Shown here piece after piece: positions 6,730-29,459 of a stretch of 29,459 nt of DNA. The translations under genes and the position numbers were made by a program. Source of the DNA: a virus; the UHGV virus genome UHGV-0099905. One strand, written 5' to 3'. The notes beneath the pieces are model-generated. The model was not told the DNA's origin and did no database searches. It saw only the letters and a list, made by a program, of their open reading frames with translations. How positions within the stretch are numbered: the stretch's first letter is position 1; each line of letters begins with the position of its first letter.

Positions 6730-7278
6730 ATGAAACGTTCAGTTATTGCGGCTACTGTATTAGCATCTCTTTTTATGAGCGCAGGATCATTTGCAGCAGA
6801 AGGGAGTACAGAGGGTCAGTTAACTATTAACGGTAAAGTCACAGAGACTACATGTCAGTTCCTGAGCGGTAGTGAGAATACAACAATTTCGATGAGCGAA
6901 ATTGGTCGTGATCAATTTGAAAATGTAGAAGTTGGCTCCCCCGTTACTACTTATTCAAATACAACATCTTTACCACTAAAAGTTAAGTGTACCGGAGGAA
7001 AAGAACCAAGAATTACCTTCTCCAGCACCCAATTTGAAGGAACGGATTCAAATATTATTCGCAATACTGGTGATGCTAGCGGTGTCGGTTTCGCTGTTTT
7101 TTTGGGGAAAGGTACTGATTCTAGCAACCGGATTTCTGGTAATAGACCTATTAAGTTAACACCAACTACTAATGGTGAACATGAGTTACATTTTACGGCA
7201 CAATACGCAAAAACAGCTGTTGATGTGGGTACTGGCGAAGTTAGTTCTGCGATAACAATGACCGTTGTAACAGATTAA
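6730..7278 (+). CDS. Fimbrial major subunit (chaperone-usher pathway)
   Basis: Signal peptide MKRSVIAATVLASLFMSAGSFA, about 180 aa, first in operon before chaperone and usher; AGGA SD upstream. Confidence 0.7.
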   Translation: MKRSVIAATVLASLFMSAGSFAAEGSTEGQLTINGKVTETTCQFLSGSENTTISMSEIGRDQFENVEVGSPVTTYSNTTSLPLKVKCTGGKEPRITFSSTQFEGTDSNIIRNTGDASGVGFAVFLGKGTDSSNRISGNRPIKLTPTTNGEHELHFTAQYAKTAVDVGTGEVSSAITMTVVTD

Positions 7279-7333
7279 CATGATGTTTATCGGCGGCTTC
7301 GGTCGCCGATTTTCAATCGCAAGGATTGTTATC

Positions 7334-8014
7334 ATGAAAAAATTAATAGCCTTCTTACTAACCGTAACGGTCCCATCTGCGTGGGGCGGTGTCTATATTT
7401 ACGGCACTCGCGTTATTTATCCGGAACAGAAAAAAGAGATTGCAGTTCAGTTAATGAATGAAGGTGAGCGTAGTGCTCTTGTTCAGTCGTGGATTGATGA
7501 TGGCGATGCCAGCCTTCCTCCGGAAAAGATTAGTGTACCTTTTGTGCTGACTCCACCGGTAGTTCATGTTAGTAAGGGTGAAGGACAGCAACTGAAAATT
7601 AAACAACTGGCGAACACTCTACCTAAAGATCGCGAAAGTCTGTTCTTCCTTAATGTACTGGATATTCCACCTAATAGTGAGAAATACGAAGGCAAGAATC
7701 TGATTAAATTCGCGATGCAAAATCGTATCAAATTTATTTATCGCCCAAAGGGTATAACAAGAGTCGATAAAGAGAGTTTTTCCCGGATTAATATCAGACC
7801 CGTTGATAGAGGCATTAACATAAAAAATAATTCAGCGAACTGGATAACCATTCCTGAATTAACCGGGAATGCGAAAATTAATAAGGAGACACTACTGCTG
7901 GCACCCTGGTCAGATCAGACTGTCAAAACGACATCCGTTGTTAACTATTACAATGTTACTCTGATTGATGATCATGGAAACTATTTGAGTGAAAAAATAA
8001 AAACTGCCAAATAG
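7334..8014 (+). CDS. Periplasmic fimbrial chaperone (PapD-like)
   Basis: Classic chaperone N-terminal pattern GVYIYGTRVIYPE...; start moved to ATG at 7334 (MKKLIAFLL signal peptide) behind AAGGA, rather than the track start at 7280. Confidence 0.85.
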   Translation: MKKLIAFLLTVTVPSAWGGVYIYGTRVIYPEQKKEIAVQLMNEGERSALVQSWIDDGDASLPPEKISVPFVLTPPVVHVSKGEGQQLKIKQLANTLPKDRESLFFLNVLDIPPNSEKYEGKNLIKFAMQNRIKFIYRPKGITRVDKESFSRINIRPVDRGINIKNNSANWITIPELTGNAKINKETLLLAPWSDQTVKTTSVVNYYNVTLIDDHGNYLSEKIKTAK

Positions 8015-8031
8015 ATTATCAGGGATTGGTT

Positions 8032-10518
8032 ATGTCAAAGTTTAATTCTATTACACTGGCTATTCTGTCAGTATTAGCGACTTCGCATACATGGGCTAAG
8101 GGTGAAACGTTTAATACCAATTTTATGATTGGTGGTTTAAATGGGGAGAAAATTTCTAACTACCATATTGATAGTGATAAGCCGATGCCGGGTATCTACG
8201 CTATGGATGTTTATCTGAATAATCAATGGCGTGGCCACTATGATATTGATATTAAAGATGACCCTAATGCAACATGTTTATCCATGGAGCAATTAAAGCA
8301 AATTGGGATCCTCACTGAAGGAATTAGTATCGATAAAGGCGTAGAATGTGTACCACTTCGGGATGCTGTCCAGGGAGGCAGCGTCGACTATGATATTGGG
8401 CATTTTAACCTAAAATTAAGCGTGCCCCAAGCCTATGTTCTGGAATATGAACATGGCTATGTTCCGCCTGAAGCATGGGATCGCGGGATTAACGCATTAT
8501 ATACATCTTATTATGCCAGTCAGTATTACAGTGATTATAAAAACGGCGGAGATGATAAAAGTAGCTATCTAAATCTGAACAGTGGGTTAAATCTCCTGGG
8601 CTGGCAGCTGCATTCAAATGCCAATTATACGAAAAGCGACGAAAACAGCGGTAAATGGAAGAGTAACACGCTATATCTGGAACGTGGAATTCCACAAATT
8701 CTCGGCACGTTTCGCGCAGGTGAAATGTATACTGGTTCTGATGTTTTTGACTCCGTGCGTTTTCGCGGCGTGCGCCTTTGGCGCGATATGCAGATGTTAC
8801 CGAACTCTAAACAGAATTTTACTCCTGTGGTACGCGGCGTTGCCCAGAGTAACGCACTCGTCACCATAGAACAAAATGGTTTTGTGGTTTACCAGAAAGA
8901 AGTACCGCCAGGCCCATTCGCCATTGATGATTTGCAACTTTCTAATGGTGGGGCAGATTTGGAAGTTATCGTCAAAGAAGCTGATGGTTCAACGTCGTAC
9001 TATCGGGTGCCTTATTCATCGGTGCCAAATATGTTGCAACCTGGCGTTTCTAAATATGAATTTTCAGCCGGACGTAGTCATATTGAAGGAGCCAGCAATC
9101 AATCTGATTTTATCCAGGGAAGCTATAAGCATGGTTTCAACAATTTGCTGACAGGTTATGGCGGCACGCTGTTATCTGATAATTACTCATCGTTTGTTCT
9201 TGGAACAGGATGGAATACACCGATTGGTGCTATATCGGTTGATTTTACCCATTCATACAGCAAGCAAGACAACGGTGATGTGTTTAACGGTCAAAGTTAT
9301 CAGATTGCCTGGAATAAATATCTCTCTCAGAGCGGAACACAATTTTCTCTGGCGGCCTGGCGTTATTCCTCTCGGGGTTATCGTACTTTTAACGATCATG
9401 TATGGGCAAATAACAAAAATAGATACAATCGAGAAGACAACTCAGGCTATGACATTGCCAACTACTACCAGTATGATTTTGGTCGCAAGAATAGCTTTTC
9501 TTTAAATATCAACCAGTCATTACCGGAAAATTGGGGGTATCTGGCGATCAGCGGTCAATGGCGAGATTACTGGGAACGTAGCGGGACAGGGAAAAATTAC
9601 CAACTAAGCTATACGAACTCATGGGAACGTCTAAGTTATACCTTGTCGGTTAGCCAGACATACGATGAGGATAACAGCGAAGACAGACGCATTAACTTAT
9701 TTTTCTCAATCCCCTTCTCGTGGCGTGATAATATCACCGAAAAACGACGAGATTTATTTATCTCTAACTCGACCACATTTGATAAAGACGGCTACCAGTC
9801 AAATACTACCAGCCTCAGTGGTGTAGCTGGGAACCGTGATCAGTTCAGCTACGGGGCTAACTTTAGCCATCAACAACAGGACAGCGAAGCAACAGCAGGT
9901 GGAAATCTGATTTGGCGTGCGCCAGTGGCTACCATTGGTGGCAGCTATAGCCAGTCGAAAAAATATCAACAGATAAGTGGTAATATTCAAGGTGGTTTAG
10001 TCGCGTGGTCAGACGGGATAGCACTGGCTCCCAGACTTTCAGATACATTTACCATCGTCCATGCTCCGGGGCTGGATGGGGCTGCGGTACAGGGGTATCG
10101 TTACCTGAGCACGGATAGCCGAGGTTACGCTATTTATGACAGCCTGACGCCGTATCGTAAAAACACGTTGATGCTGGATACTTCTGACAGTCAAAGCGAT
10201 GTGGCACTACTGGGCAACCGTAAAAGCACCGCTCCTTATCGTGGGGCCGTTGTGATGACGCAGTTTGATACTGACAAACGTAAACCCTGGTATTTCCTTG
10301 CTCAGCGCCCGGATGGTTCTCCATTATCGTTCGGTTATGAAGTTGAAGATGAAAGCGGTAAGAATGTGGGCTTGGTAGGACAGGGAAGTCGGATATTTAT
10401 TCGCACTGATGATGTTCCCGCATCGATTCGCGTCTCGGTTAATAAACAGCAGGAACAATTCTGTACTATTACCTTTGATAAAGTTATCGAAGAGAATAAA
10501 GTTTATATTTGTCGTTAA
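8032..10518 (+). CDS. Fimbrial outer-membrane usher
   Basis: About 830 aa, signal peptide, usher N-terminal FNTNF motif, beta-barrel-type composition; ATG at 8032 behind AGGGA. Confidence 0.9.
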   Translation: MSKFNSITLAILSVLATSHTWAKGETFNTNFMIGGLNGEKISNYHIDSDKPMPGIYAMDVYLNNQWRGHYDIDIKDDPNATCLSMEQLKQIGILTEGISIDKGVECVPLRDAVQGGSVDYDIGHFNLKLSVPQAYVLEYEHGYVPPEAWDRGINALYTSYYASQYYSDYKNGGDDKSSYLNLNSGLNLLGWQLHSNANYTKSDENSGKWKSNTLYLERGIPQILGTFRAGEMYTGSDVFDSVRFRGVRLWRDMQMLPNSKQNFTPVVRGVAQSNALVTIEQNGFVVYQKEVPPGPFAIDDLQLSNGGADLEVIVKEADGSTSYYRVPYSSVPNMLQPGVSKYEFSAGRSHIEGASNQSDFIQGSYKHGFNNLLTGYGGTLLSDNYSSFVLGTGWNTPIGAISVDFTHSYSKQDNGDVFNGQSYQIAWNKYLSQSGTQFSLAAWRYSSRGYRTFNDHVWANNKNRYNREDNSGYDIANYYQYDFGRKNSFSLNINQSLPENWGYLAISGQWRDYWERSGTGKNYQLSYTNSWERLSYTLSVSQTYDEDNSEDRRINLFFSIPFSWRDNITEKRRDLFISNSTTFDKDGYQSNTTSLSGVAGNRDQFSYGANFSHQQQDSEATAGGNLIWRAPVATIGGSYSQSKKYQQISGNIQGGLVAWSDGIALAPRLSDTFTIVHAPGLDGAAVQGYRYLSTDSRGYAIYDSLTPYRKNTLMLDTSDSQSDVALLGNRKSTAPYRGAVVMTQFDTDKRKPWYFLAQRPDGSPLSFGYEVEDESGKNVGLVGQGSRIFIRTDDVPASIRVSVNKQQEQFCTITFDKVIEENKVYICR

Positions 10519-10528
10519 AGGATTTTTT

Positions 10529-11539
10529 ATGAAGAAATATTGGTTTTTGTTTTTGTTGATTATTCCATTTTTTGGGCAGGCGAAATGTACCCCTAAGGGA
10601 ACTTGGACAGCAACTCAACCAATTACACTGGACTTAACAACGGATTCAACAATAGTAAGTTTTAATCCCAACCTGCAAGGATCTTATGAATGTAACTCGA
10701 GGGGGGATAAGATGTATTTTGCAACAACGTTAGATGACTATATTGTTGAAATGAAAGATGGCTCCAGCAATAAGTCTATTTTTATTAAATTAAAGCTTGA
10801 GGCTGATGGATTTCCTGTAGAAACGAGTGGTTCGCTTCTGTCGCCTAAAACCTATTCTGTTGCTGATACCATTAATAATAAACAACTGAAGTTAACGGCC
10901 TCATATATACCACCAACTAAATATAGAAGTGATCGTGGTGAAGCGGTAGAGGGGGATTCATTCGAATTGAAAAAAGCGGCGGCTAATTTTTTGTCTGATA
11001 ATACATGTAGTTCAAATATTCTTTCATGGATAGCATGCTATGTTTTTGGATTGTTAAATAAAGGTGAAGCTTACGAACAAAAACTAACCATTAATGTTAA
11101 ACACAAACCCACAACCTGTCGTTTCTCGCAACCGACTTACGAAATAAGAATACCAGAAACAACGATAAGTGAAATGCTATCTGCCAATAACTCAAAATCA
11201 GGTTCTGTAGATCTGGTCCTAAATTGCGATAGTGTCTATAACGTCACGACTAATCCAGTGACTTTTAAAGTTGAGCGTGGTGTGTGGGATGATAGTGGAA
11301 CAATATTGAAAAATACATTGTCCGATGGTGCTAAGGGTGTAGGGTTCCAGATTTACAATGGTAATGCAACGACACCGTTAAAGCTGGGCGATACCCTGAT
11401 GAACAGATTACCTAAAATGGCGGCTATTCAGGAGCAGTACATCTTCCCGATTACCGCAAAATACGTTCGCGTGAAAGAGGAAGCTTTACAGCCTGGGGAA
11501 GTTCAAGGCCAGGCGATATTTGCCGTATCCTACGACTAA
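10529..11539 (+). CDS. Fimbrial minor subunit / tip adhesin candidate (two-domain size, about 337 aa)
   Basis: Signal peptide MKKYWFLFLLIIPFFGQA starting at ATG 10529 after SD AAAGGA; the track start at 10409 overlaps the usher and is rejected. Confidence 0.6.
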   Translation: MKKYWFLFLLIIPFFGQAKCTPKGTWTATQPITLDLTTDSTIVSFNPNLQGSYECNSRGDKMYFATTLDDYIVEMKDGSSNKSIFIKLKLEADGFPVETSGSLLSPKTYSVADTINNKQLKLTASYIPPTKYRSDRGEAVEGDSFELKKAAANFLSDNTCSSNILSWIACYVFGLLNKGEAYEQKLTINVKHKPTTCRFSQPTYEIRIPETTISEMLSANNSKSGSVDLVLNCDSVYNVTTNPVTFKVERGVWDDSGTILKNTLSDGAKGVGFQIYNGNATTPLKLGDTLMNRLPKMAAIQEQYIFPITAKYVRVKEEALQPGEVQGQAIFAVSYD

Positions 11540-11717: not shown

Positions 11718-11945
11718 GTGTTTATGCAATCTATTAACTTCCGTACCGCACGCAGCAATCTTACCGAAGTGCTCAACAATGTTGAAGCCGGAGAAGAGGT
11801 TGAAATCACCCGTAGAGGCCGTGAGCCAGCTGTAATTGTCAGCAAGGCCACTTTCGAAGCCTACAAAAAAGCGGCGCTGGATGCTGAATTCGCATCCCTG
11901 TTTGACACTCTGGACACCACCAATAAGAAACTGGTTAACCGATAA
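11718..11945 (+). CDS. phd: Phd antitoxin (P1-type)
   Basis: [64 protein letters not shown]... is near-identical to P1 Phd as recalled; overlaps doc by TAATG. Confidence 0.9.
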
Positions 11946-12322
11946 TGAGGCATATATCACCGGAAGAGCTTACTGCAATTCATGATGCGAATATAAGCCG
12001 CTACGGCGGCCTGCCAGGCATGTCAGATTCGGGAAGAGCTGAGGCTATTATCGGGAGAGTCCAGGCCAGAGTTGCATATGAAGAGATTACCGACCTTTTC
12101 GAAGTCTCCGCAACTTACCTGGTGGCTACTGCGAGAGGGCATATATTCAATGATGCCAATAAGCGTACCGCGCTAAACAGTGCGTTGTTATTTCTGCGCC
12201 GTAACGGTGTGCAGGTATATGATTCACCAGAACTGGCAGAGCTTACTGTGGGGGCTGCGACCGGAGAGGTATCCGTATCTACTGTCGTTGCCACGTTACG
12301 TAGATTGTATGGTACGGCGTAG
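11945..12322 (+). CDS. doc: Doc toxin (Fic-fold kinase, P1-type)
   Basis: MRHISPEEL...[26 protein letters not shown]... matches P1 Doc as recalled, including the Fic-like HxFxDANKR motif. Confidence 0.9.
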
Positions 12323-16136: not shown

Positions 16137-16904
16137 ATGGACGATTTATCGGTATACGCGAGATCATTGGATAAGGCTAAATACTATGTTTACTGTCTCT
16201 ATGATACAGAAGACAAGATGAAAAGACCGTTTTACATAGGAAAAGGCAAATCGACTCGTTGTCTCGATCACATCAAGTATCCCGATGACTCTCCCAAATC
16301 CATGCGGATCAAAGAACTTTTGGCTAATAAAAAATTAGGCATAGATATTCTTCGTCATGGTATGGATGAAACCACAGCCAAACTTGTTGAGGCGACATGC
16401 ATCGACCTTATGGGTGTCGGAGAGCTTACGAATAAGGTACGAGGAAGTGGTTCCATGATGGGCAGAATATCACTGGACGCCTACCATCACTTAGTGCTGC
16501 AAGAGGAAACTGAAATTGCTCCTGAGCACGCCGGTCTTGCCTTCCTGCTAAACAGCACCTACAAGTCAGGAATGTCCGCTCTGGCATTATATGAAGCTAC
16601 GCGTGGCGTATGGGCAAAGGTTCCAAGAGACGAGAATCTCAAATATGCCTACGCTACATATGGGGGCCTGATAATGGAAGTTTATCAGATTGAATGCTGG
16701 GTCAAAGCCGGTTCTCAGCAGTACTTTACAAGGGATATAGCTCTTGGCCCCGACACAAAACGTTATGAATTTGTTGGCAGAATAGCCGATGAGCATATTA
16801 GAAAACTGTATGTAGGCAAATTAATCAAGAAGCCACCAAGCTACGGCAGCCCTTTTGTGAAGGTTGGGGTGGTTAGGAATGAACATAGTGTTAGCGCGGC
16901 ATAA
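16137..16904 (+). CDS. GIY-YIG nuclease-domain protein with uncharacterised C-terminal domain
   Basis: N-terminal KYYVYCLYDTEDKMKRPFYIGKGKSTRCLDH fits the GIY...YIG...R...H pattern with a downstream Glu; about 170-aa C-terminal region of unknown fold. Confidence 0.6.
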   Translation: MDDLSVYARSLDKAKYYVYCLYDTEDKMKRPFYIGKGKSTRCLDHIKYPDDSPKSMRIKELLANKKLGIDILRHGMDETTAKLVEATCIDLMGVGELTNKVRGSGSMMGRISLDAYHHLVLQEETEIAPEHAGLAFLLNSTYKSGMSALALYEATRGVWAKVPRDENLKYAYATYGGLIMEVYQIECWVKAGSQQYFTRDIALGPDTKRYEFVGRIADEHIRKLYVGKLIKKPPSYGSPFVKVGVVRNEHSVSAA

Positions 16905-18303: not shown

Positions 18304-18573
18304 ATGTCCGCACTGAAAAAGCAGCGCATCGATTTGAGATTAACCGATGACGATAAAAGCATCATCGAGGAAGCTGCCGCAATGTCTAACCAGAGCATTA
18401 CCCAGTTCATGGTTAGCAGTGCATCCGAACGTGCCGTGAAGGTGATAGAGCAACACCGTAGACTGGTTCTAAGTGAAGAGTCCTGGAATCTGGTTATGGA
18501 TGCTATAAGCAATCCTCCGGCACCGAACGACAAGCTGAAACGAGCTGCCAATCGTCTGAAAAGCATGGAGTAA
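18304..18573 (+). CDS. tacA: DUF1778-type RHH antitoxin (TacA-like)
   Basis: 89 aa; RIDLRLTDDDKSIIEEAAA...QFMV...AISNPPAPNDKLKRA pattern typical of the family; followed 8 nt later by a GNAT gene. Confidence 0.8.
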   Translation: MSALKKQRIDLRLTDDDKSIIEEAAAMSNQSITQFMVSSASERAVKVIEQHRRLVLSEESWNLVMDAISNPPAPNDKLKRAANRLKSME

Positions 18574-18580
18574 TTTACTC

Positions 18581-19102
18581 GTGAGCAATACGACGATCGA
18601 GATTTTCTCTGGAGAGAAAGATTATGATCTAAACGGTTTTGATTGCGGCGAAGAGTCACTAAACGCATTTTTGACCAACCACTTAAAAAGACAGCATGAA
18701 GGAAAAATTCTTCGCGCTTATGTGCTTTGCACTAAAGAAGAAATACCAAAGGTATTAGGTTATTACACTTTGTCAGGCAGCTGCTTTGAGAAAGAAAACT
18801 TACCTTCAAAGAGTCAGCAAAAGAAAGTGCCTTATCGGCATGTCCCAAGTATCACTTTAGGCAGACTGGCTTTGGACAAATCTCTTCAAGGTCAGGGGCT
18901 TGGCTCAATGCTTGTAACTCACGCAATGCGTGTTGTGTACAATGCATCTCTTGCGGTAGGCATTCATGGGCTTTTCGTTGAGGCGTTGAACGATAAAGCC
19001 AGGGCGTTTTATAAAAGTTTGGGCTTTATCCAGCTGGTTGGTAACAACGATCGTTCTTTGTTCTATCCAACAAAATCTATCGAAAAATTGTTCGAAGAAT
19101 AA
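18581..19102 (+). CDS. tacT: GNAT-family acetyltransferase toxin (TacT/AtaT-like)
   Basis: 173 aa GNAT fold pattern (LGYYTLSGSCF..., QGQGLGSMLV) paired with a DUF1778 gene; GTG start. Confidence 0.8.
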   Translation: MSNTTIEIFSGEKDYDLNGFDCGEESLNAFLTNHLKRQHEGKILRAYVLCTKEEIPKVLGYYTLSGSCFEKENLPSKSQQKKVPYRHVPSITLGRLALDKSLQGQGLGSMLVTHAMRVVYNASLAVGIHGLFVEALNDKARAFYKSLGFIQLVGNNDRSLFYPTKSIEKLFEE

Positions 19103-19524: not shown

Positions 19525-20217
19525 TTACACTAATCCTTTCTGGTGCTTGCGAACCTGGGACCAGGCAATGAATGCTGCCACAAGAATGGTAGCTACGCCA
19601 AAGATGATGCGTACCGTATCTCCACTGGAGATATTGCCTTGCGCTTTATCCATTGCGGCAGAAACTTGAGGCATAACGTCAGCAATTTGTGCAAGGCCAA
19701 TACCTGCAGTGACTGTAGCACCTGTGGTTTCTTTTGTTACAGGAACGGCTTTTACAGCCTTTACCGGTTTGACAATGCCGGCACGTCGCAGCCCTTCTTC
19801 GATAAGTTCTGGTGTATACCAGCTATTGGGGGTTTTCAGCGGACCTCGGCCATTTTCATGTCTAATGATCGCCTCTACCAGCGGTCTTAAGGTCTCGTAG
19901 TCATGCAGATCGATAATCATATCTGGTGCTACTCCAACGGCTTTGGATACCTCGTTCACATAAGCCAAAGTGTTGTTCTCATGTGGAGGCGCCCAGCGTT
20001 CGATGACTTCGCGGATCGTATCAATGCTGGAGCCATCTTTTGCGCGGCGCTTGTCGTGGTAAGTAATGAGTGTCACTGCCAAAGCCCGAATCCCCCACAC
20101 GGGGTCTTTGAACGTGCAGAAACGCGGTTCGGCAGGGTTGTCAATTAGCCCCTGCCACGGCGCTCCTTTATCAAGATTACCGGGGTTGTTATTACGAATG
20201 CCTCTCGGAGTTTTCAT
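19525..20217 (-). CDS. Putative cell-wall hydrolase (endolysin-like) with C-terminal hydrophobic anchor; family not recognised
   Basis: Position between holin-like gene and spanins; N-terminal motif RGIRNNNPGNL; C-terminal TM IIFGVATILVAAFIAWSQV; start placed at ATG 20217 behind AGGAGA. Confidence 0.35.
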   Translation of the reverse strand: MKTPRGIRNNNPGNLDKGAPWQGLIDNPAEPRFCTFKDPVWGIRALAVTLITYHDKRRAKDGSSIDTIREVIERWAPPHENNTLAYVNEVSKAVGVAPDMIIDLHDYETLRPLVEAIIRHENGRGPLKTPNSWYTPELIEEGLRRAGIVKPVKAVKAVPVTKETTGATVTAGIGLAQIADVMPQVSAAMDKAQGNISSGDTVRIIFGVATILVAAFIAWSQVRKHQKGLV

Positions 20218-20230
20218 CCTTGATCTCCTG

Positions 20231-20554
20231 TTATTGCAATCCATTTTTTACGCCATACGCGGCCAATCCTAAAAGCAGTACGGTAATAATGAACGACGTT
20301 ATTTTCGAAACAATGCCGCCAAAGAACCCACTGGAGATGGTGTCGAGCCGGTTAAGAAGTTTGTCCAGATTGGAGTGCTGAATGCTGTGTTGTGCGGGCG
20401 TCATATCGCCAAAGTAGGTTTTGAGCTGGTCATTGACCTCCTGACCAATTTCCTCGCGTATTTCTTTACCTAATTTGCCTACGACTTCCCGAGCAACGAT
20501 TGAGGCGATGCGCTCAACCTGTTCAGTTGTGACTCCCGCCATCTCGTTCGACAT
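20231..20554 (-). CDS. Holin-like small membrane protein (single C-terminal TM)
   Basis: 107 aa from the ATG preceded by GGAGGA; C-terminal TM ITSFIITVLLLGLAAYGV; first gene of the lysis-like cassette; an extended -10 (TGGTATAAAT) lies upstream. Confidence 0.4.
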   Translation of the reverse strand: MSNEMAGVTTEQVERIASIVAREVVGKLGKEIREEIGQEVNDQLKTYFGDMTPAQHSIQHSNLDKLLNRLDTISSGFFGGIVSKITSFIITVLLLGLAAYGVKNGLQ

Positions 20555-20620
20555 GTTTTCCTCCATGAAAAGTCAAATCGGGATGGCGAATTTATACCAC
20601 AAATATTACCTTTTTTGTAG

Positions 20621-20632
20621 GTAAGTACTTAC
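20621..20632. promoter_or_regulatory. Perfect 12-bp palindrome GTAAGTACTTAC (motif copy) upstream of the lysis-like cassette
   Basis: Overlaps the stop codon of the Gly-rich gene; followed at about 25 nt by TGGTATAAAT. Confidence 0.5.
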
Positions 20633-21423
20633 ACACGAGAACCGTATATTGCTCCGACGGCGATCCATTGAGGGGCATTACCCATGACAGCAGCCCCAGC
20701 AGCCCCACCGCCATATCGATTTCCAGAGTTGCCATAACACGCTCCACCTGCCGCTCCAACATTGCCACCAGTACCGCCATGATTAGCGTTAACCCCAGAC
20801 CCAGTACCTGGAGCAGTAAGCGAAGCGGCCCCAGCAGCAGCACCACCATTGCCTGAATACCTACCTGCAGCACCAAATGGCCTGCCACCGCCACCACCTA
20901 CCAGATAGGCTCCGACAAAGCCGGCATCCCAATAGCCACCACCGCCACCACCGCCACCACCGCCACCACCGGCAATAGCACCATTATTGGTAATACGTAG
21001 TCTAGTTCCTATTGCATTCTTAATCGCGGCCCCACCAGCAGAACCCGCTGAGTTTGACCCGCCATTTCCTCCTCTCCCATATATGGTAACTCCACCATTA
21101 ATTACGAGGTTAATATATGAGTTTGATAAGTCACCAGGAAAGTCTAGGCAAGGGACTGTACTACTTGTAGAAACTAAATCCCCTGTAATAGTAACTACTA
21201 CAGGTGTAGAGCCAACAGAGCGTAAATATGATATTAATGTGTCTTTGTTATAATTGTGATTAGCCCCTATTGAGTAGTAAATCTCTTTTGACCTACCGGC
21301 CATCTGTGACATATTTCCTGCTGCCGACAATTGGACTGTGGTACGGGCAGCACTCATCCAACGTTGCCCTGTTTCGGAAACCGCTGATGATCCTATCCAT
21401 CCTGGAACATTTGAAATTGACAC
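20629..21423 (-). CDS. Glycine-rich protein (264 aa) downstream of the side tail fibre gene
   Basis: ORF in track; GTG start after GAGAGGG; central G12 run and GG/GN repeats; N-terminal non-repetitive domain. Confidence 0.6.
   Translation of the reverse strand: MSISNVPGWIGSSAVSETGQRWMSAARTTVQLSAAGNMSQMAGRSKEIYYSIGANHNYNKDTLISYLRSVGSTPVVVTITGDLVSTSSTVPCLDFPGDLSNSYINLVINGGVTIYGRGGNGGSNSAGSAGGAAIKNAIGTRLRITNNGAIAGGGGGGGGGGGGYWDAGFVGAYLVGGGGGRPFGAAGRYSGNGGAAAGAASLTAPGTGSGVNANHGGTGGNVGAAGGACYGNSGNRYGGGAAGAAVMGNAPQWIAVGAIYGSRV
20936..20973. repeat. Simple-sequence repeat (CCACCACCG)x4 encoding the poly-Gly run
   Basis: Seen directly; the 9-bp unit keeps the reading frame. Confidence 0.9.
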
Positions 21424-21485
21424 AATAACCCTCTCAAATATTATGACAGTTTATTATGGGAGAGGTCTTAGCCTCTCCAACATTA

Positions 21486-24400
21486 TCATATTTTTTGTTC
21501 AATGATTGCTGCCAGCTCTTTAACAGCCTCAATAAGAAGTGCTATTTGTGCAGAATTTGAAATAGTCAGAACATCTTCGCCATTTGCATCTTTGTAAGCT
21601 GAAACAGCTTCCGGTAAAACCTTTTGGAGTTCCTGAGCAACAACACCCGCCTCACGACGAACCGTACTAGATTGAAAATTTTCCTTTTTATCGTAAATTA
21701 ATCCGCTCAGTACTTTCACCTTACTCAGAGCATTTTTAATCGGTGCGAAGTTACTTTTAAGTCTGGCATCAGAGCGGATATAAACATCGTTAAAGTTACC
21801 ATTACCTCCACAAACCCAAGTACCATCATTTTGAAGATATGCGTTCGCATCCGTGCCATTCGCGGTACGTGAGTTGTTGATCATGTAAAAACCAAACTGA
21901 CTGTTTCCCAAGCCACCCACAAAGAATTTGCGATCCGCGTGGTCTTGTCTCAACAACGCTTGTGCAGAGCTTGTGCTTACAGCATTCTTCCCGAAGATGA
22001 CGTTCTGGCTCCGCATATCGATCCATGCGCCAGAACCGCTGTTGATAGAGTAGCTGTTGGCATAAACCCATGCACTTGACGTGATATCCCCCGTTACACT
22101 CAACGGCTTAAGGCTTTGCAACGTGCCATTAGTGAACCGAAAAACATGGGCATTATTTGCATAAACATCAAGAATGCCATCACCATTCTGTTTTAAGCCA
22201 GTATCATTATCGCCTAATACGATAGAGTTTCCGCCAAGCGCATTCGACACCCCTAATCCGACGCTACCGTTAATTACTGCCCCATTACTAATATCAACGC
22301 CATTTCCAAGTGTCACTCGTCCTGTTGTATTGCTAATATATAGTGGACGTAAAGGTCCCCAACTTCCATGTTGATCACCTGAATTTGTCAACAGAAAGTA
22401 AGTATTCGCCCCATCATTTCGAATGAAGAAGCCATAATTCCCATATACTGCACGGAAAGCATTTGCTGTTTCGGAAACCACCTCTCCATTTATACTCATT
22501 GTAATAGTATTGTCAGTGTTTCTCTGACTGTAAAAGTGATAGCCTTGATCGTCTTTGAATTCAATTACCGTTGGCCTTGAAGAATTTCCCCATACCTGCA
22601 TATAAGTATTCAGTGACGGAGTTTCAGTAGTCTGCACCCTGAATACTTTCCCGTTTGAATTTTGAAATCCAAGTGACCCGGTTAAAGTTCCTCCGGTTAA
22701 TTTCAAAAAGAGTGCATCAATCCATCCAGCGAAACCCGGTTTATTGATATACACGTTGCCATCATTGGCAAATATACCACCACCAGGTGATCTTAATGGC
22801 TGCGACATATTCGCCAAAGTCAATTGGCCTGACATTGAATCGCCAGCTCGATTAAAGTCGCGCCTCCAGCCTGGCGCATAAGAGTCACCGTGGTTGATGT
22901 AGGTAAACTGAGCCTTGACGGTTCCGCCATTCGTTGCCGTCGTGGGGGTAGTGACGCGAATCGTCATAGCATCCCGAACCCCCATAACTTCAACTACAGC
23001 GCCAGCGAGTTGTATATTCCCACAACCGGTATCCGTGATGATTTTATTGGCAGCGTAAGACCAAGAGCCTTTGCACATCCAGTATGGATAATTGAATGCC
23101 CCCTGAGACTCCAACCACTCAATAAATTGCGCCGTCGTCCAGTTGTTGCTGTCTCCCCCAATACTGATACTGCCGCCAGCAGCTTTCGCTGCGCCAATAT
23201 TTTTTGCGAAGGTGTCTTTGCTAGGTATATCCGCGCCATTCTGGTCTTTCCGAAGGCGTGTTTCAGCATTGTCGTATGCGGCCTTCACGGCCTTTGATGT
23301 GGCCGCATAACTTTCACTGCTATTGTTGGTATCACTGTTAAGCTGAACAAGCCCCTTTTGCGACGTGGTGGCGTCCTGTGCAGTGTATTTGCCATTAGCA
23401 AGATCATATGCTGTCTTTACTGCTTTTGGGGTGGCTGCAAATGACTCCGATTCGCTATTAGTTGAGCTACTAAGTTGTACTATTCCCTTATTCGTCGTGC
23501 TTGCATCCTCAAGCGCCACGGCGGATGCAATATCCTCAGCTCGTTTTGCCGCTGTCTCAGAGCGTGTTGCCGCGGATTCTGCCGCATTTTTGCTCTGCGC
23601 AGCCGCCGTCGCACTGTCTGCCGCTTCCGTCGCCTTCGTTGATGCCGTTGTCGCACTCTCTGCTGCCGCTGACGCCTGGCGAGCGGCCTCATCTTTTGAA
23701 GATGACGCCGAGGAAGCTGAAACAGAGGCAGAGCTTGCAGATTCGGCTGCTGTCTCCTTAGAAGCAGCGGCATTGTCTTCTGAAGTCTTTGCATTGGTTT
23801 CAGAAGATTTTGCCGCCTCTGCTGACTTTTCCGCAGCTGTTGCCTGTTTCGTCGCCTCTGTCGCTTTAGCGGTGGCATTTGCCGCGGATAACGAAGCGCT
23901 TTCCGCAGACTTTTCTGCCGACGTTGCACTTGATGAAGCACTATCCGCGCTTACTGAGGCCGCGCTCGCTGACGTTTCTGCCGCAGATTTCGAACTGTTT
24001 GCAGACAATGCACTCTGTTCGGCAGCAGATTCAGACGCTTTTGCGTTTGTCTCTGATGCTTTTGCTGCCTTACATGAATTTGCAGCTTCTGTAGCTGATG
24101 ATGCTGCCGCGTTTGCACTCGATGAAGCGTTAGTCTCTGATAATTTAGCCGCATCCTTAGATGCAGAGGCACTGGACGCTGATGTGGCTGCCTCCGATGC
24201 TTTAGTCGACGCCACAGATGCTGATTCTGCTGCCGCTTCTTTTGCCGCTTCTGCGTTTGTTTCAGATTTTTCCGCAGCAGCTGCACTCTCACTCGCCGCA
24301 CTTTGTGAAGATACCGCAGCGGATGCACTTTGAGATGCCTGAGAGGCTTTTTCTACAGCAGTGTTGGCACTTTCTGCCGCAGCGACAGCACTGGCCGCCG

Positions 24401-24875
24401 CCTCCCGAGCTTTGTCTCCAGCGGCCTCAATCGCATCGGTGTTATTTTTATACCACTCAACGTTTTCGTTATGCTCGTTGACGATCTGCATTAGCGGCTT
24501 AACGGTCACTTCTGTACCGTCTTCACGCTCGATTGTCACATCATCCAGAGCGGTCAACCAACTGCGCATGGACTTGGAATCAGCCGACATACGCGACATT
24601 AGTGCAGTAAAGCGCGCACTAAACTGAGTTAAGTCGCCTTCATAGGTCGTAATGATTCGGCACGGAACTTTAGATTGAGTTTCGCCGGTATAAGGTTCTG
24701 AGAGGACAATGACCGTATCACTGGTTACGCGCTTGACCTCATACAACTTATTGTCAGGACCAATGACAATCATGCCCGGTAACACGCCGTTTTCGGTCAA
24801 ATTCCAACGTGTTCCGATGCCTGATATTGTGTCGCTTCCTTTTGTAAATGTAACAGTACCTTCCCTGTACCACAT
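21486..24875 (-). CDS. Side tail fibre protein (lambda Stf-like) with Ala/Ser-rich coiled-coil region, phage fibre repeats and C-terminal S74-type intramolecular chaperone
   Basis: KRAEDIASAVALEDASTTNKGIVQLSSSTNSESESFAATPKAVK closely matches the lambda Stf repeat as recalled; C-terminal SDARLK...VLPEAV chaperone/autocleavage pattern; start moved to ATG 24875 behind AAGGAG (the track ORF begins 31 codons upstream). Confidence 0.85.
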   Translation of the reverse strand: MWYREGTVTFTKGSDTISGIGTRWNLTENGVLPGMIVIGPDNKLYEVKRVTSDTVIVLSEPYTGETQSKVPCRIITTYEGDLTQFSARFTALMSRMSADSKSMRSWLTALDDVTIEREDGTEVTVKPLMQIVNEHNENVEWYKNNTDAIEAAGDKAREAAASAVAAAESANTAVEKASQASQSASAAVSSQSAASESAAAAEKSETNAEAAKEAAAESASVASTKASEAATSASSASASKDAAKLSETNASSSANAAASSATEAANSCKAAKASETNAKASESAAEQSALSANSSKSAAETSASAASVSADSASSSATSAEKSAESASLSAANATAKATEATKQATAAEKSAEAAKSSETNAKTSEDNAAASKETAAESASSASVSASSASSSKDEAARQASAAAESATTASTKATEAADSATAAAQSKNAAESAATRSETAAKRAEDIASAVALEDASTTNKGIVQLSSSTNSESESFAATPKAVKTAYDLANGKYTAQDATTSQKGLVQLNSDTNNSSESYAATSKAVKAAYDNAETRLRKDQNGADIPSKDTFAKNIGAAKAAGGSISIGGDSNNWTTAQFIEWLESQGAFNYPYWMCKGSWSYAANKIITDTGCGNIQLAGAVVEVMGVRDAMTIRVTTPTTATNGGTVKAQFTYINHGDSYAPGWRRDFNRAGDSMSGQLTLANMSQPLRSPGGGIFANDGNVYINKPGFAGWIDALFLKLTGGTLTGSLGFQNSNGKVFRVQTTETPSLNTYMQVWGNSSRPTVIEFKDDQGYHFYSQRNTDNTITMSINGEVVSETANAFRAVYGNYGFFIRNDGANTYFLLTNSGDQHGSWGPLRPLYISNTTGRVTLGNGVDISNGAVINGSVGLGVSNALGGNSIVLGDNDTGLKQNGDGILDVYANNAHVFRFTNGTLQSLKPLSVTGDITSSAWVYANSYSINSGSGAWIDMRSQNVIFGKNAVSTSSAQALLRQDHADRKFFVGGLGNSQFGFYMINNSRTANGTDANAYLQNDGTWVCGGNGNFNDVYIRSDARLKSNFAPIKNALSKVKVLSGLIYDKKENFQSSTVRREAGVVAQELQKVLPEAVSAYKDANGEDVLTISNSAQIALLIEAVKELAAIIEQKI

Positions 24876-25012: not shown

Positions 25013-26533
25013 TTAACTGATGCCCGACATGGAAAATGCGCCACTTCCACGGCTGATTAGCATCACGGGCGAATAAATATGTGTCTGTGATGAACTGGTC
25101 ACTTTTACCGTAACAGCAACAGTTCTTGAGGTAACATTGTTAAAAGCAGCGTAAAGAGTGCCACCGACGCCTGTAGAACTTGTCGAATTAAGATCAGGGT
25201 CTCTGTATGTTGCCCCCTTACCAGTGGTTGCGGTCTTCGTCACTCCATTGCAGGTAAATTGGGCTGCAACAGGGCCGACGCCCCCCGTATATACATTTAT
25301 TGCCACATAAATATTTTTGGGCAATGCAGACGAAGAAGAGTCTGTATATGTCATTGTATATGTGCCGTTGTAACGAACTGAGAAGTCATTGCCCACATAC
25401 ATGTTAGCGACATCGCCTACGAAGTGATCTGCTTGTACCGTGCCTCTGAATGTTCCGCTGGTAGCCTGTATTTCTCCTGTGAATTTGCCATTCGTTGCGT
25501 AAACGGTGCCTCTAACAGTTACATTGTTAAACTCTGAGTTCCCGTTTTTATTAATATGCCACCCCGTCATCCCGCTTGAGTAATCGTTGGACTGAATGAA
25601 GTTGCCTATTTTGGCGTTATCAATGGTGCCGTTCTTGATATAAGCTCCGTTCATATAAGCCACACCGGCATCAATAACGAATGGCGTTGTAATTTTCCCA
25701 TTAACGGAGTTCACCAAACCAAAGCGATCTGCCTGCACCAAAAACTGCGATAGACCTGTTGTGTCGATGCCCAACGCTATGCCGGCAACATATTTTTGGC
25801 CTCCGCTGGTGGAGGTTTCCATTTTCAGCGTCCAGGCTGTTGATACCTTCTTGTTCGTATCAGCAATAGCTGTGGCCTGTTGTTGAATTGTTGCTGTATT
25901 TCCATCTACTGATGCTTTTAAGGTGTCAACTCTCCCACTTAGTGCATTGTCGGCGCTTGACGCATCAAACGTCACCTTGAAGCGCATCGTCTGGTGTTCA
26001 GCGCCGACTCGCTCGGTTTTCTCGCGTTTGTCCTCATCGACCGGCTCGTCATCGCCACGGGAGAGCGCTTCCAGCGCTTCAAGATCGATAACGGACGCTT
26101 TGGCGAGTGTTGCCGCCATTTCGTCGTCATACGGGGCGATATCGGACAACCGGTAGTCGATTTCAGACTGGATTTCTTCGATTAAGCGCTGCAAAGCGAC
26201 CTGATCGTCTTCGCCGTAGCGCTCGTTGTCGACGAGGGAAATCTGTTTAGCCACCAGATCGTTAATTTTGCCCACGGAGATGACGGGAACCGTTGAAATG
26301 CCCTGCTCCATCGCGGCACGCCAGCGGTGTTCACCACCGAGGATCTCAAAAATGCCCCCGTCCAACTCCCGCGCCAGAATTGGCTTAAAAAAGCCCAATT
26401 TTTCGATAGAGCCTTTCAGTTTTTCGAAGTTTTGCGCCCCAACGGAGTTGGTATTCCAGGGATTCGGACGCAGGTTCGCGACTTCCACCTGCAGAATCGT
26501 AATTTTCACACCCATAATTCTGATACAATCCAT
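25013..26533 (-). CDS. Chimeric protein: N-terminal ParB/Srx-like nuclease domain fused to a lambda J-type (host-specificity / tail-tip) C-terminal region
   Basis: N-terminal LRPNPWN...ILGGEHRWRAA resembles ParB box motifs; an acidic linker follows; the C-terminal half (FLVQADRFGLVNSVNGKITTPFVIDAGVAYMNGAYIKNGTIDNAKIG...) resembles the C-terminal receptor-binding part of J-like proteins; single uninterrupted ORF. Confidence 0.55.
   Translation of the reverse strand: MDCIRIMGVKITILQVEVANLRPNPWNTNSVGAQNFEKLKGSIEKLGFFKPILARELDGGIFEILGGEHRWRAAMEQGISTVPVISVGKINDLVAKQISLVDNERYGEDDQVALQRLIEEIQSEIDYRLSDIAPYDDEMAATLAKASVIDLEALEALSRGDDEPVDEDKREKTERVGAEHQTMRFKVTFDASSADNALSGRVDTLKASVDGNTATIQQQATAIADTNKKVSTAWTLKMETSTSGGQKYVAGIALGIDTTGLSQFLVQADRFGLVNSVNGKITTPFVIDAGVAYMNGAYIKNGTIDNAKIGNFIQSNDYSSGMTGWHINKNGNSEFNNVTVRGTVYATNGKFTGEIQATSGTFRGTVQADHFVGDVANMYVGNDFSVRYNGTYTMTYTDSSSSALPKNIYVAINVYTGGVGPVAAQFTCNGVTKTATTGKGATYRDPDLNSTSSTGVGGTLYAAFNNVTSRTVAVTVKVTSSSQTHIYSPVMLISRGSGAFSMSGIS

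Positions 26534-29095: not shown

Positions 29096-29459
<364 letters not shown>

Follow-up and report, generated by a model that had tools for sequence, protein, structure and literature searches.

The window analysed here, the whole 29,459-nucleotide stretch of the virus genome UHGV-0099905, carries on its minus strand an open reading frame (ORF; 20629..21423, GTG start, TAA stop, 264 amino acids) for a full-length receptor-binding adhesin of the T2/S16 gp38 type. The gene is a new allele of this known adhesin family, and the codons of its central glycine run form a perfect 9-bp tandem repeat, (GGTGGTGGC)n, that occurs in one to four units in otherwise identical alleles. The window has four units, and hence twelve glycines (G12). 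All sampled copies that deviate from the three-unit form (G9) lie in a plasmid lineage marked by a deletion, and the explanation we favour, probable rather than secure, is that G3, G6 and G12 are neutral-to-deleterious slippage products under relaxed selection and not programmed variation.

Identity and fold of the protein

The GTG start of the gene is preceded, 5 nt upstream, by the Shine-Dalgarno sequence GAGAGGG. The Pfam family GP38 (PF05268) covers amino acids 47-264 with its entire profile (1-218/218; 2e-70, 237.5 bits, cut-off 25), and Gp38_N (PF21721) covers amino acids 1-42 (profile 1-40/40; 5e-15, 55.6 bits, cut-off 25). The protein also matches PHROG 2056 'tail fiber protein; host specificity' (1e-90) and, by phmmer, the solved adhesins of Salmonella phage S16 (6F45_D, 8e-47) and E. 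coli phage PP01 (9V85, 3e-41). An AlphaFold2 (AF2) model built on 64 homologues reached a mean predicted local distance difference test (pLDDT) score of 89.8 and a predicted template modelling (pTM) score of 0.83. A Foldseek search with this model returned 6F45_D (E=3e-20, template modelling score, TM, 0.80/0.84) and 9V85_C (TM 0.73/0.86) and no third PDB fold, all further matches having E>2. The preliminary description of the window, made from the letters and their ORFs alone, had proposed a fibre-associated adhesin, which agrees with the Pfam, PDB and AF2 assignments, and had also presented the product as an odd glycine-rich protein. The latter view has to be given up, for this is a textbook gp38 adhesin (PF05268/PF21721).

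T2-type gp38 is a monomeric adhesin made of a helical domain that docks on gp37, a beta-helix and a three-layer sandwich (PMC6851490; PMC3157838; PMC12892980). The last of these, the 'polyglycine sandwich', consists of ten polyglycine-II (PGII) helices, and the hypervariable loops contact the receptor (PMC6851490; PMC3157838; PMC12892980). The same three domains, helical attachment, beta-helix and PGII sandwich, are recovered in the AF2 model of the window protein. Although the C-terminal half of the protein is glycine-rich throughout, this richness is due to the fold, the glycine runs being structural PGII helices. Near-invariant or invariant columns (G115-R116-G117-G118, G154-G160, G176-G179-R180-P181-F182-G183, G216/G218/G219 and G239-G247) alternate with variable stretches.

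In S16 gp38 three tryptophans of the attachment domain anchor in three pockets of the gp37 trimer (PMC6851490). The corresponding domain of the window protein has three helices in the AF2 model (H9-17, H22-28 and H37-40), and two of its docking tryptophans, W9 and W22, stand in columns that hold Trp in 62/64 homologues each. The third position is Asn37 in the allele group of the window (21313-21315). Because this column is Trp in only 37/64 homologues (Tyr in 12, Asn in 6, Ser in 5), the third docking tryptophan seems not strictly defining for gp38. In an intact relative, a gp38 of this type would be expected in the virion, at the fibre tip, and would bind an outer-membrane receptor.

The glycine run and its place in the fold

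Tandem Repeats Finder reports a period-9 array at 20935-20971, with 4.1 copies, 100% matches and the plus-strand consensus GCCACCACC; the unit CCACCACCG of the preliminary description is the same 9-bp repeat shifted by one base, and its claim of a perfect tandem repeat encoding G12 was correct. On the coding strand the repeat reads GGT GGT GGC x4 and specifies the twelve consecutive glycines Gly152-Gly163. The 36-mer was recovered in 0/100 dinucleotide-preserving shuffles of the window, even allowing 2 mismatches. The 53 other glycine codons of the gene are GGT/GGA/GGG/GGC = 20/12/11/10, and given this usage a strict 3-codon periodicity across 12 codons has a probability of ~8e-6. The repeat is thus the signature of a recent unit duplication rather than of chance. 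A second 9-bp repeat of the gene, (CAGCAGCCC)x2.2 on the plus strand at 20688-20707, encodes GAAGAA near the C-terminus and is invariant among six aligned gp38 alleles. Three ORFs on a different frame or strand, at 20592-20897 (minus), 20668-20856 (plus) and 20987-21253 (plus), lie across the full-length GP38 match and are for that reason regarded as by-products of GC-rich Gly/Ala codons.

By sequence alignment to 6F45_D, the G12 run corresponds to residues 151-158 of S16 gp38, that is, to PGII helix 3. In S16 this helix, 151-GGGGGGGG-158, is the long one at the centre, and its hydrogen-bond network is saturated (PMC6851490). Hence the run of the window would form the central strand of the sandwich and lead straight into receptor loop B, whose equivalent segment is hypervariable across homologues. 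In PP01 gp38 loop B spans Q161-V170, residues 158-170 are essential for adsorption and the Y159A change abolishes infection (PMC12892980). In T6, removal of any of the glycine-rich motifs (GRM) GRM2, GRM3 or GRM4 yielded no viable phage (PMC3157838). The AF2 models of the two alleles differ at this place: in the G9 allele residues 151-160 have a mean pLDDT of 97 with none below 50, versus a block mean of 66 in the G12 allele, where the opening part of the run includes three glycines under 50. The models are consistent with a surplus turn that the PGII lattice does not accommodate.

Copy-number polymorphism of the repeat

Five plasmids carry the same gene (96.6-98.9% identity, gaps counted). 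In their alignment with the window there are 0-4 substitutions per 786 nt and all length differences fall inside the repeat, with four units in the window, three in pTAir-3, pLAO59, p1919D62-2 and pYLPI6a, and one in p2017-01-4CC_1. Two units (G6) are found in a 258-amino acid cluster member, P0124, coming from two assemblies (L026 and L027) that differ elsewhere by single-nucleotide polymorphisms (SNPs). One, two, three and four units, encoding G3, G6, G9 and G12, are therefore present on otherwise identical alleles, and the in-frame copy-number change anticipated in the preliminary description is borne out among isolates. Over 29,396 aligned bases the window and pLAO59 differ by four SNPs (5287, 5288, 19794 and 28291), none in gp38 or the fibre gene, and by one 9-bp unit. 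Given four length states in otherwise identical alleles, and one 9-bp indel against four SNPs, the tract has a mutation rate far above that of ordinary sites, and each change involves whole units and preserves the frame. The obvious mechanism would be slipped-strand mispairing.

In a set of ~15 billion proteins, at least 75 contigs carried G9, two carried G6 and one carried G3, and neither G12 nor the hypothetical G15, G18 and G21 alleles were found. Among 99 family representatives with the NNGAIA-Gn motif the run is G7 in 13, G8 in 31, G9 in 53 and shorter in 2, and no run of more than 10 glycines occurs in the whole family set. The length follows the type of loop B, without variation inside a type. 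Nine isolated Krischvirus phages with gp38 genes at least 99% identical all have the modal length (G7). In other gp38 genes the run is encoded by mixed GGA/GGT/GGC codons; since the perfect repeat is confined to the lineage of the window, the high slippage rate appears, from the codons, to be peculiar to that lineage. The proposal of a length-variable adhesin is thus upheld as regards the polymorphism and not supported as regards functional variability: the family keeps to 7-9 glycines, G9 is dominant, and the deviant alleles belong to a lineage devoid of virion genes.

A megablast of the gp38 gene against a phage collection gave no match, and the relatives came via plasmids, proteins and tblastn. 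An exact pattern of the left flank plus the repeat had 0 matches in metagenome contigs and 0 in genome contigs, and a scan of viral contigs for (GGTGGTGGC)x3 returned 120 unrelated loci, 0 of them encoding gp38. No report of a glycine-run length polymorphism in gp38 was found in the literature searched, which did not extend to the older host-range papers of the Henning laboratory; the word 'slippage' has 0 occurrences in PMC3157838.

The host element is a phage-plasmid remnant

The backbone of the window is that of an SSU5-like phage-plasmid and shares 85-88% identity with Salmonella phage SSU5 as well as with Cyrano and CMS-2020a. The window is 99.96% identical to pLAO59, a 111.5-kb IncY multidrug-resistance plasmid whose annotation lists resistance, mercury and silver islands together with insertion sequence (IS) elements, and no capsid, terminase, portal or tail genes. 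Upstream of the fibre gene a single ORF fuses ParB_N to the C-terminus of the central tail fibre J (Table 1), with the junction at ~25958-25963 and the N-terminal ~1200 amino acids of J gone. Because the two halves lie tens of kilobases apart in intact relatives, and J is full-length there (1524-1527 amino acids in L014 and L016-L019), the junction is the scar of a deletion that removed the morphogenesis genes. The junction is common to five plasmids, pLAO59, p2017-01-4CC_1, pTAir-3 and two others; two of the five carry a different fibre/Tfa cassette. Full gp38 genes, searched with the N-terminal 151 amino acids as query, are also present in several other phage-plasmid-sized elements of ~106-114 kb, and gp38 adhesins of the SSU5-like group are already in databases as 'receptor-recognizing protein'.

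Seventeen gp38 copies were sampled in their genomic context. The nine copies of the deletion lineage have 4, 3, 3, 3, 3, 3, 2, 2 and 1 units, and all copies with an intact J (five) or with other damage (three) have 3 units. The four non-G9 copies, those of the window, p2017-01-4CC_1, L026 and L027, are accordingly all in the deletion lineage. Further signs of decay in the group are a frameshift in the endolysin gene of L011 and an IS that interrupts the pYLPI6a fibre.

Origin of the deviant alleles

In a working phage one gp38 monomer would cap the trimeric side fibre encoded upstream, once the S74 domain has removed itself, and would then bind its outer-membrane receptor via hypervariable loops set on the three-layer PGII sandwich. 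The (GGTGGTGGC)n tract would provide helix 3, the central helix of the sandwich, and run into receptor loop B. Replication slippage would gain or lose whole 9-bp units in frame, each worth three glycines and one PGII turn, and the functional length would be n=3, the window being a one-unit expansion. In working phages mutation and selection would be balanced around G9. In a multidrug-resistance plasmid the fibre/gp38 cassette would no longer be selected for adsorption, because the remnant has lost its virion genes, and deviant lengths would survive where the fibre module is unused. Several points weigh against this scenario. The link between deviant alleles and the deletion lineage is suggestive but not significant (one-sided Fisher p 0.05, or 0.10 with L026 and L027 counted as one event), the sampled copies being few and phylogenetically non-independent. 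Only 29.5 kb of the replicon is visible in the window, so that the absence of virion genes is deduced from pLAO59, and pseudogenes are missing from the PLSDB gene table. The window retains intact ORFs for the fibre, gp38, holin and endolysin, all of which could be used by a helper phage or through recombination. The poor confidence of the surplus glycines in the AF2 model is no measurement of stability, and an effect of G12 on fitness is presumed. Finally, a Krischvirus-like 162-kb contig (L028, 3001-3777) has G4, encoded by GGT GGT GGC GGT, and a second sequence (L029, 1501-2286), 1 SNP apart and 99.9% identical in this gene, has one GGTGGTGGC unit more and therefore G7. A change of three glycines may thus be tolerated in a replicating virulent phage, and the 9-bp unit appears to slip in virulent T-even-type phages too.

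This Krischvirus-like pair also speaks for a different explanation, in which the tract is a functional length tuner, or contingency locus, whose slippage steps of one PGII turn shift the reach or flexibility of loop B and supply the population with variants of receptor affinity or specificity. In PGII geometry three glycines make one turn, of about 9 Å, so the unit length would equal one helical turn; the four length states make the locus far faster than point substitution, and the run leads directly into the loop whose equivalent is essential for PP01 adsorption. A coding repeat with copy-number polymorphism among near-identical genomes, as contingency loci have, is indeed present. Variants that are common and reside in functional elements were not found: G9 is overwhelmingly dominant (75/2/1/0 contigs for G9/G6/G3/G12), the deviants are all in virion-less elements, and all intact-J copies and the nine Krischvirus isolates have the modal length. 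Moreover, the family length is fixed at 7-9 and tied to the type of loop B, the perfect repeat occurs in one lineage against mixed codons in other gp38 genes, and in the AF2 model the surplus glycines bulge out, with low confidence, on the proximal side of the run and not at loop B. Such a tuner is unlikely, and slightly more so in its strict form of a slippage-driven ruler, in which each unit adds one turn to helix 3, moves loop B and shifts receptor affinity or specificity.

The extra unit and the other deviant copy numbers might be suspected of being artefacts of sequencing or assembly in a low-complexity tract, as G12 is seen in the window only. Typical errors of long reads are homopolymer indels of 1-2 nt, however, and the deviations are always exact 9-bp multiples in frame, in a 36-bp tract far shorter than a read. 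They come from four independent assemblies, complete plasmids included, and G6 was recovered in two assemblies that differ by SNPs elsewhere, all of which makes an artefact very improbable. A tail-fibre assembly chaperone of the T4 gp38 or lambda Tfa type, as opposed to a virion adhesin, is effectively refuted, its probability being close to nil. The preliminary description had rightly recognized the slot as one where such a chaperone would be expected, since sister plasmids hold a Caudo_TAP protein there, and homologues of gp38 still go by the name 'distal long tail fiber assembly catalyst' in some database records. It was equally right that the expected chaperone is not what the slot contains: there is no Caudo_TAP (PF02413) match at E<=0.1, the GP38 adhesin match is full length, and the modelled fold equals the crystal structures of the S16 and PP01 adhesins. 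In addition, a separate chaperone is not required, because the upstream fibre carries its own Peptidase_S74. Two other candidates were discarded. Collagen-like G-X-Y fibre repeats do not fit a run that is made of glycine alone and whose place in a solved fold is a PGII helix. Nor is a diversity-generating retroelement apparent, on inspection rather than by a search aimed at a reverse transcriptase or template repeat, among the ORFs or annotated genes of the window or pLAO59, where the variation lies only in unit copy number.

Partner fibre, cassette and neighbouring genes

The fibre gene upstream of gp38 (Table 1) encodes two Phage_fiber_2 domains, a Gp34_trimer domain and a C-terminal Peptidase_S74. 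Autocleavage is predicted in the sequence ...NDVYIRS/DARLKSNF, between Ser (21771-21773) and Asp (21768-21770). The last ~95 amino acids of the fibre and the site VYIRS/D.RLKSNF align with gp37 of a gp38-bearing Tequatrovirus. In T2-type phages the C-terminus of gp37 is cleaved off and gp38 then caps the tip (PMC3157838). By analogy, removal of the S74 domain would expose the tip that gp38 caps in the fibre of the window. This fibre is a mosaic: at 21774-22235 on the minus strand (residues ~912-1066 of the 1160-amino acid ORF) a T-even gp37 tip motif, GGNSI.LGD.DTGLKQNGDGILDVYANN..VFRF, is followed by a ~110-amino acid Mu-S-like domain homologous to residues 342-446 of 5YVQ (8e-59 overall). 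The position of the Mu-S-like domain, between the T-even tip motif and the VYIRS/D cleavage site, makes any assignment of the docking geometry, and of the surface that gp38 would cap, tentative. The middle of the fibre gene is rich in Ala and Ser, of low complexity, and contains a 21-bp repeat (23770-23813). The long antisense and alternate-frame ORFs that overlap it, of 322, 153 and 125 amino acids (23365-24333 plus, 23480-24328 minus), look like compositional by-products and not genes.

The distal part of the fibre is exchanged together with gp38 as one cassette, because homology to pYY76-1-1 (99.6% / 98.2% identity) stops exactly at 20632/20633 and 22979/22980. Between these points pYY76-1-1 has another distal fibre and a Caudo_TAP gene (3e-43). 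In both SSU5 and Cyrano, the counterparts of the lysis genes that follow gp38 are syntenic and bear the annotations holin and endolysin.

Other genes of the window complete the picture of the backbone and its cargo. A TacA/DUF1778 antitoxin and a GNAT acetyltransferase toxin of the KacT/TacT type (18304-19102, plus) lie between the lysis genes and parA, and KacT is named in the Cyrano annotation. A 255-amino acid protein with a LEM-3-like GIY-YIG nuclease domain (5.5e-7; 16137-16904, plus), conserved in all sampled relatives, is encoded between parA and the replication genes, and a Phd/YefM-Doc (Fic) toxin-antitoxin pair (11724-12322, plus) adjoins the primase and DnaB-like helicase genes. The phage-plasmid backbone also carries a complete chaperone-usher fimbrial operon (6730-11539, plus) with YehD-like subunit, chaperone, usher and adhesin-like subunit, and relatives whose virion genes are intact have this operon as well. 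The window begins inside a gene for a PAS-domain methyl-accepting chemotaxis protein (51-1004, plus) and has at its other end an IS3-family transposase fragment (29096-29455, minus); both are insertions or cargo flanking the remnant, as in pLAO59.

Table 1. Coordinates in the window of the adhesin gene, its parts and the adjoining features
Feature	Coordinates	Strand	Evidence
gp38-type receptor-binding adhesin gene, 264 amino acids	20629..21423	-	Pfam, PHROG, PDB, AF2/Foldseek
N-terminal helical attachment domain, amino acids 1-42, predicted to dock on the fibre tip	21298..21423	-	Pfam Gp38_N; AF2 helices
(GGTGGTGGC)x4 tandem repeat, element variable in copy number	20935..20970	-	Tandem Repeats Finder; alignment to 6F45_D
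Loop-B equivalent, amino acids 164-175, YWDAGFVGAYLV	20899..20934	-	Alignment to PP01 gp38 (9V85)
Side tail-fibre gene, 1129 amino acids from ATG 24875 (ORF extends to GTG 24968)	21486..24875	-	Pfam; PGAP 3390-nt coding sequence in pLAO59
Peptidase_S74 intramolecular chaperone domain	21603..21773	-	PF13884 1.2e-14
Exchangeable cassette, distal ~497 amino acids of the fibre plus gp38	20633..22979	-	Homology breaks versus pYY76-1-1
Lysis genes directly downstream of gp38: holin-like membrane protein (20231-20554/20566) and endolysin (19525-20217/20244)	19525..20566	-	PHROG 5093; PHROG 873 'endolysin'
ParB_N::J-C-terminus fusion ORF, 506 amino acids	25013..26533	-	Pfam ParB_N and Phage_Tail_Tip

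Significance

Taken alone, the identification of the gene is routine annotation, and PGAP already says 'receptor-recognizing protein'. The natural series of G3, G6, G9 and G12 alleles in the central helix, on an otherwise identical background, is a ready test set for the length tolerance of a PGII lattice, of which very few are known, and could guide host-range engineering based on gp38. The case shows how a tail-fibre module decays or drifts once a phage-plasmid becomes a resistance plasmid, and it is a reminder that repeats prone to slippage in receptor-binding proteins are not necessarily adaptive. If the ruler were real, it would constitute an in-frame, reversible, high-rate route to host-range variants for phage-plasmids and Krischvirus-type T-evens, distinct from loop substitution or cassette exchange.

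Comparison with known systems

The closest known system is the gp38 of T2/T6/Ox2/S16/PP01-type Straboviridae, which the window protein matches over its full length in sequence and fold, being 46-62% identical to T-even representatives. Both have the three domains and the glycine-rich motifs between hypervariable loops, and in both the gene lies downstream of a fibre that ends in an S74 chaperone. The differences concern both setting and detail: the window gene resides in the remnant of an SSU5-like siphovirus-type phage-plasmid instead of a virulent T-even myovirus, its partner fibre, a mosaic, has a Mu-S-like domain inserted ahead of the cleavage site, the third docking tryptophan is Asn, and helix 3 is encoded by a perfect 9-bp repeat and has 12 glycines versus 7-9 elsewhere. 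Nearer still is the G9 allele WP_096098950.1, 'receptor-recognizing protein', of plasmids such as pLAO59, pTAir-3 and p1919D62-2, which is the same protein bar three glycines. It has three units against the four of the window and is the form found in intact-J copies, and the flanks in pLAO59 match the window over 29.4 kb bar four SNPs.

Within the same phage group and slot, SSU5_022, annotated as 'receptor-recognising tail fiber adhesin', has the Gp38_N domain (2.5e-20), but at 178 amino acids it lacks a PGII sandwich, and its C-terminal part is unrelated; the short gp38 of the RB43 type offers an analogy for it (PMC3157838). The Caudo_TAP proteins (PF02413; lambda Tfa, T4 gp38 and Mu U) share with the window gene the slot directly after the side-fibre gene, where they are swapped with the gp38 cassette among sisters. 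They are nevertheless unrelated in sequence and fold, and are chaperones, not receptor binders.

As regards the repeat, the polyG tracts of Campylobacter phages are reportedly contingency loci driven by slippage. The homopolymeric simple sequence repeats of T2/T4 have been described in the same terms and are under-represented in tail-fibre genes (bioRxiv 10.1101/2025.10.21.683753). The tract of the window resembles the phage contingency loci in being a tandem repeat inside a gene, with a copy number that shifts by slippage faster than point mutation. It differs in that theirs are mononucleotide tracts that switch genes on and off by frameshift, whereas the unit here is 9 bp and always in frame, and in that its repeat bears no sign of selection for variability. 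Finally, Tetart et al. in 1996, a study cited in PMC3157838, are said to have described expansion of host range through duplication of a small adhesin domain in T4 gp37. These duplications, like the extra unit of the window, are in frame and affect a determinant of the tail-fibre tip, but they were selected for altered host range and arose in an unrelated adhesin.

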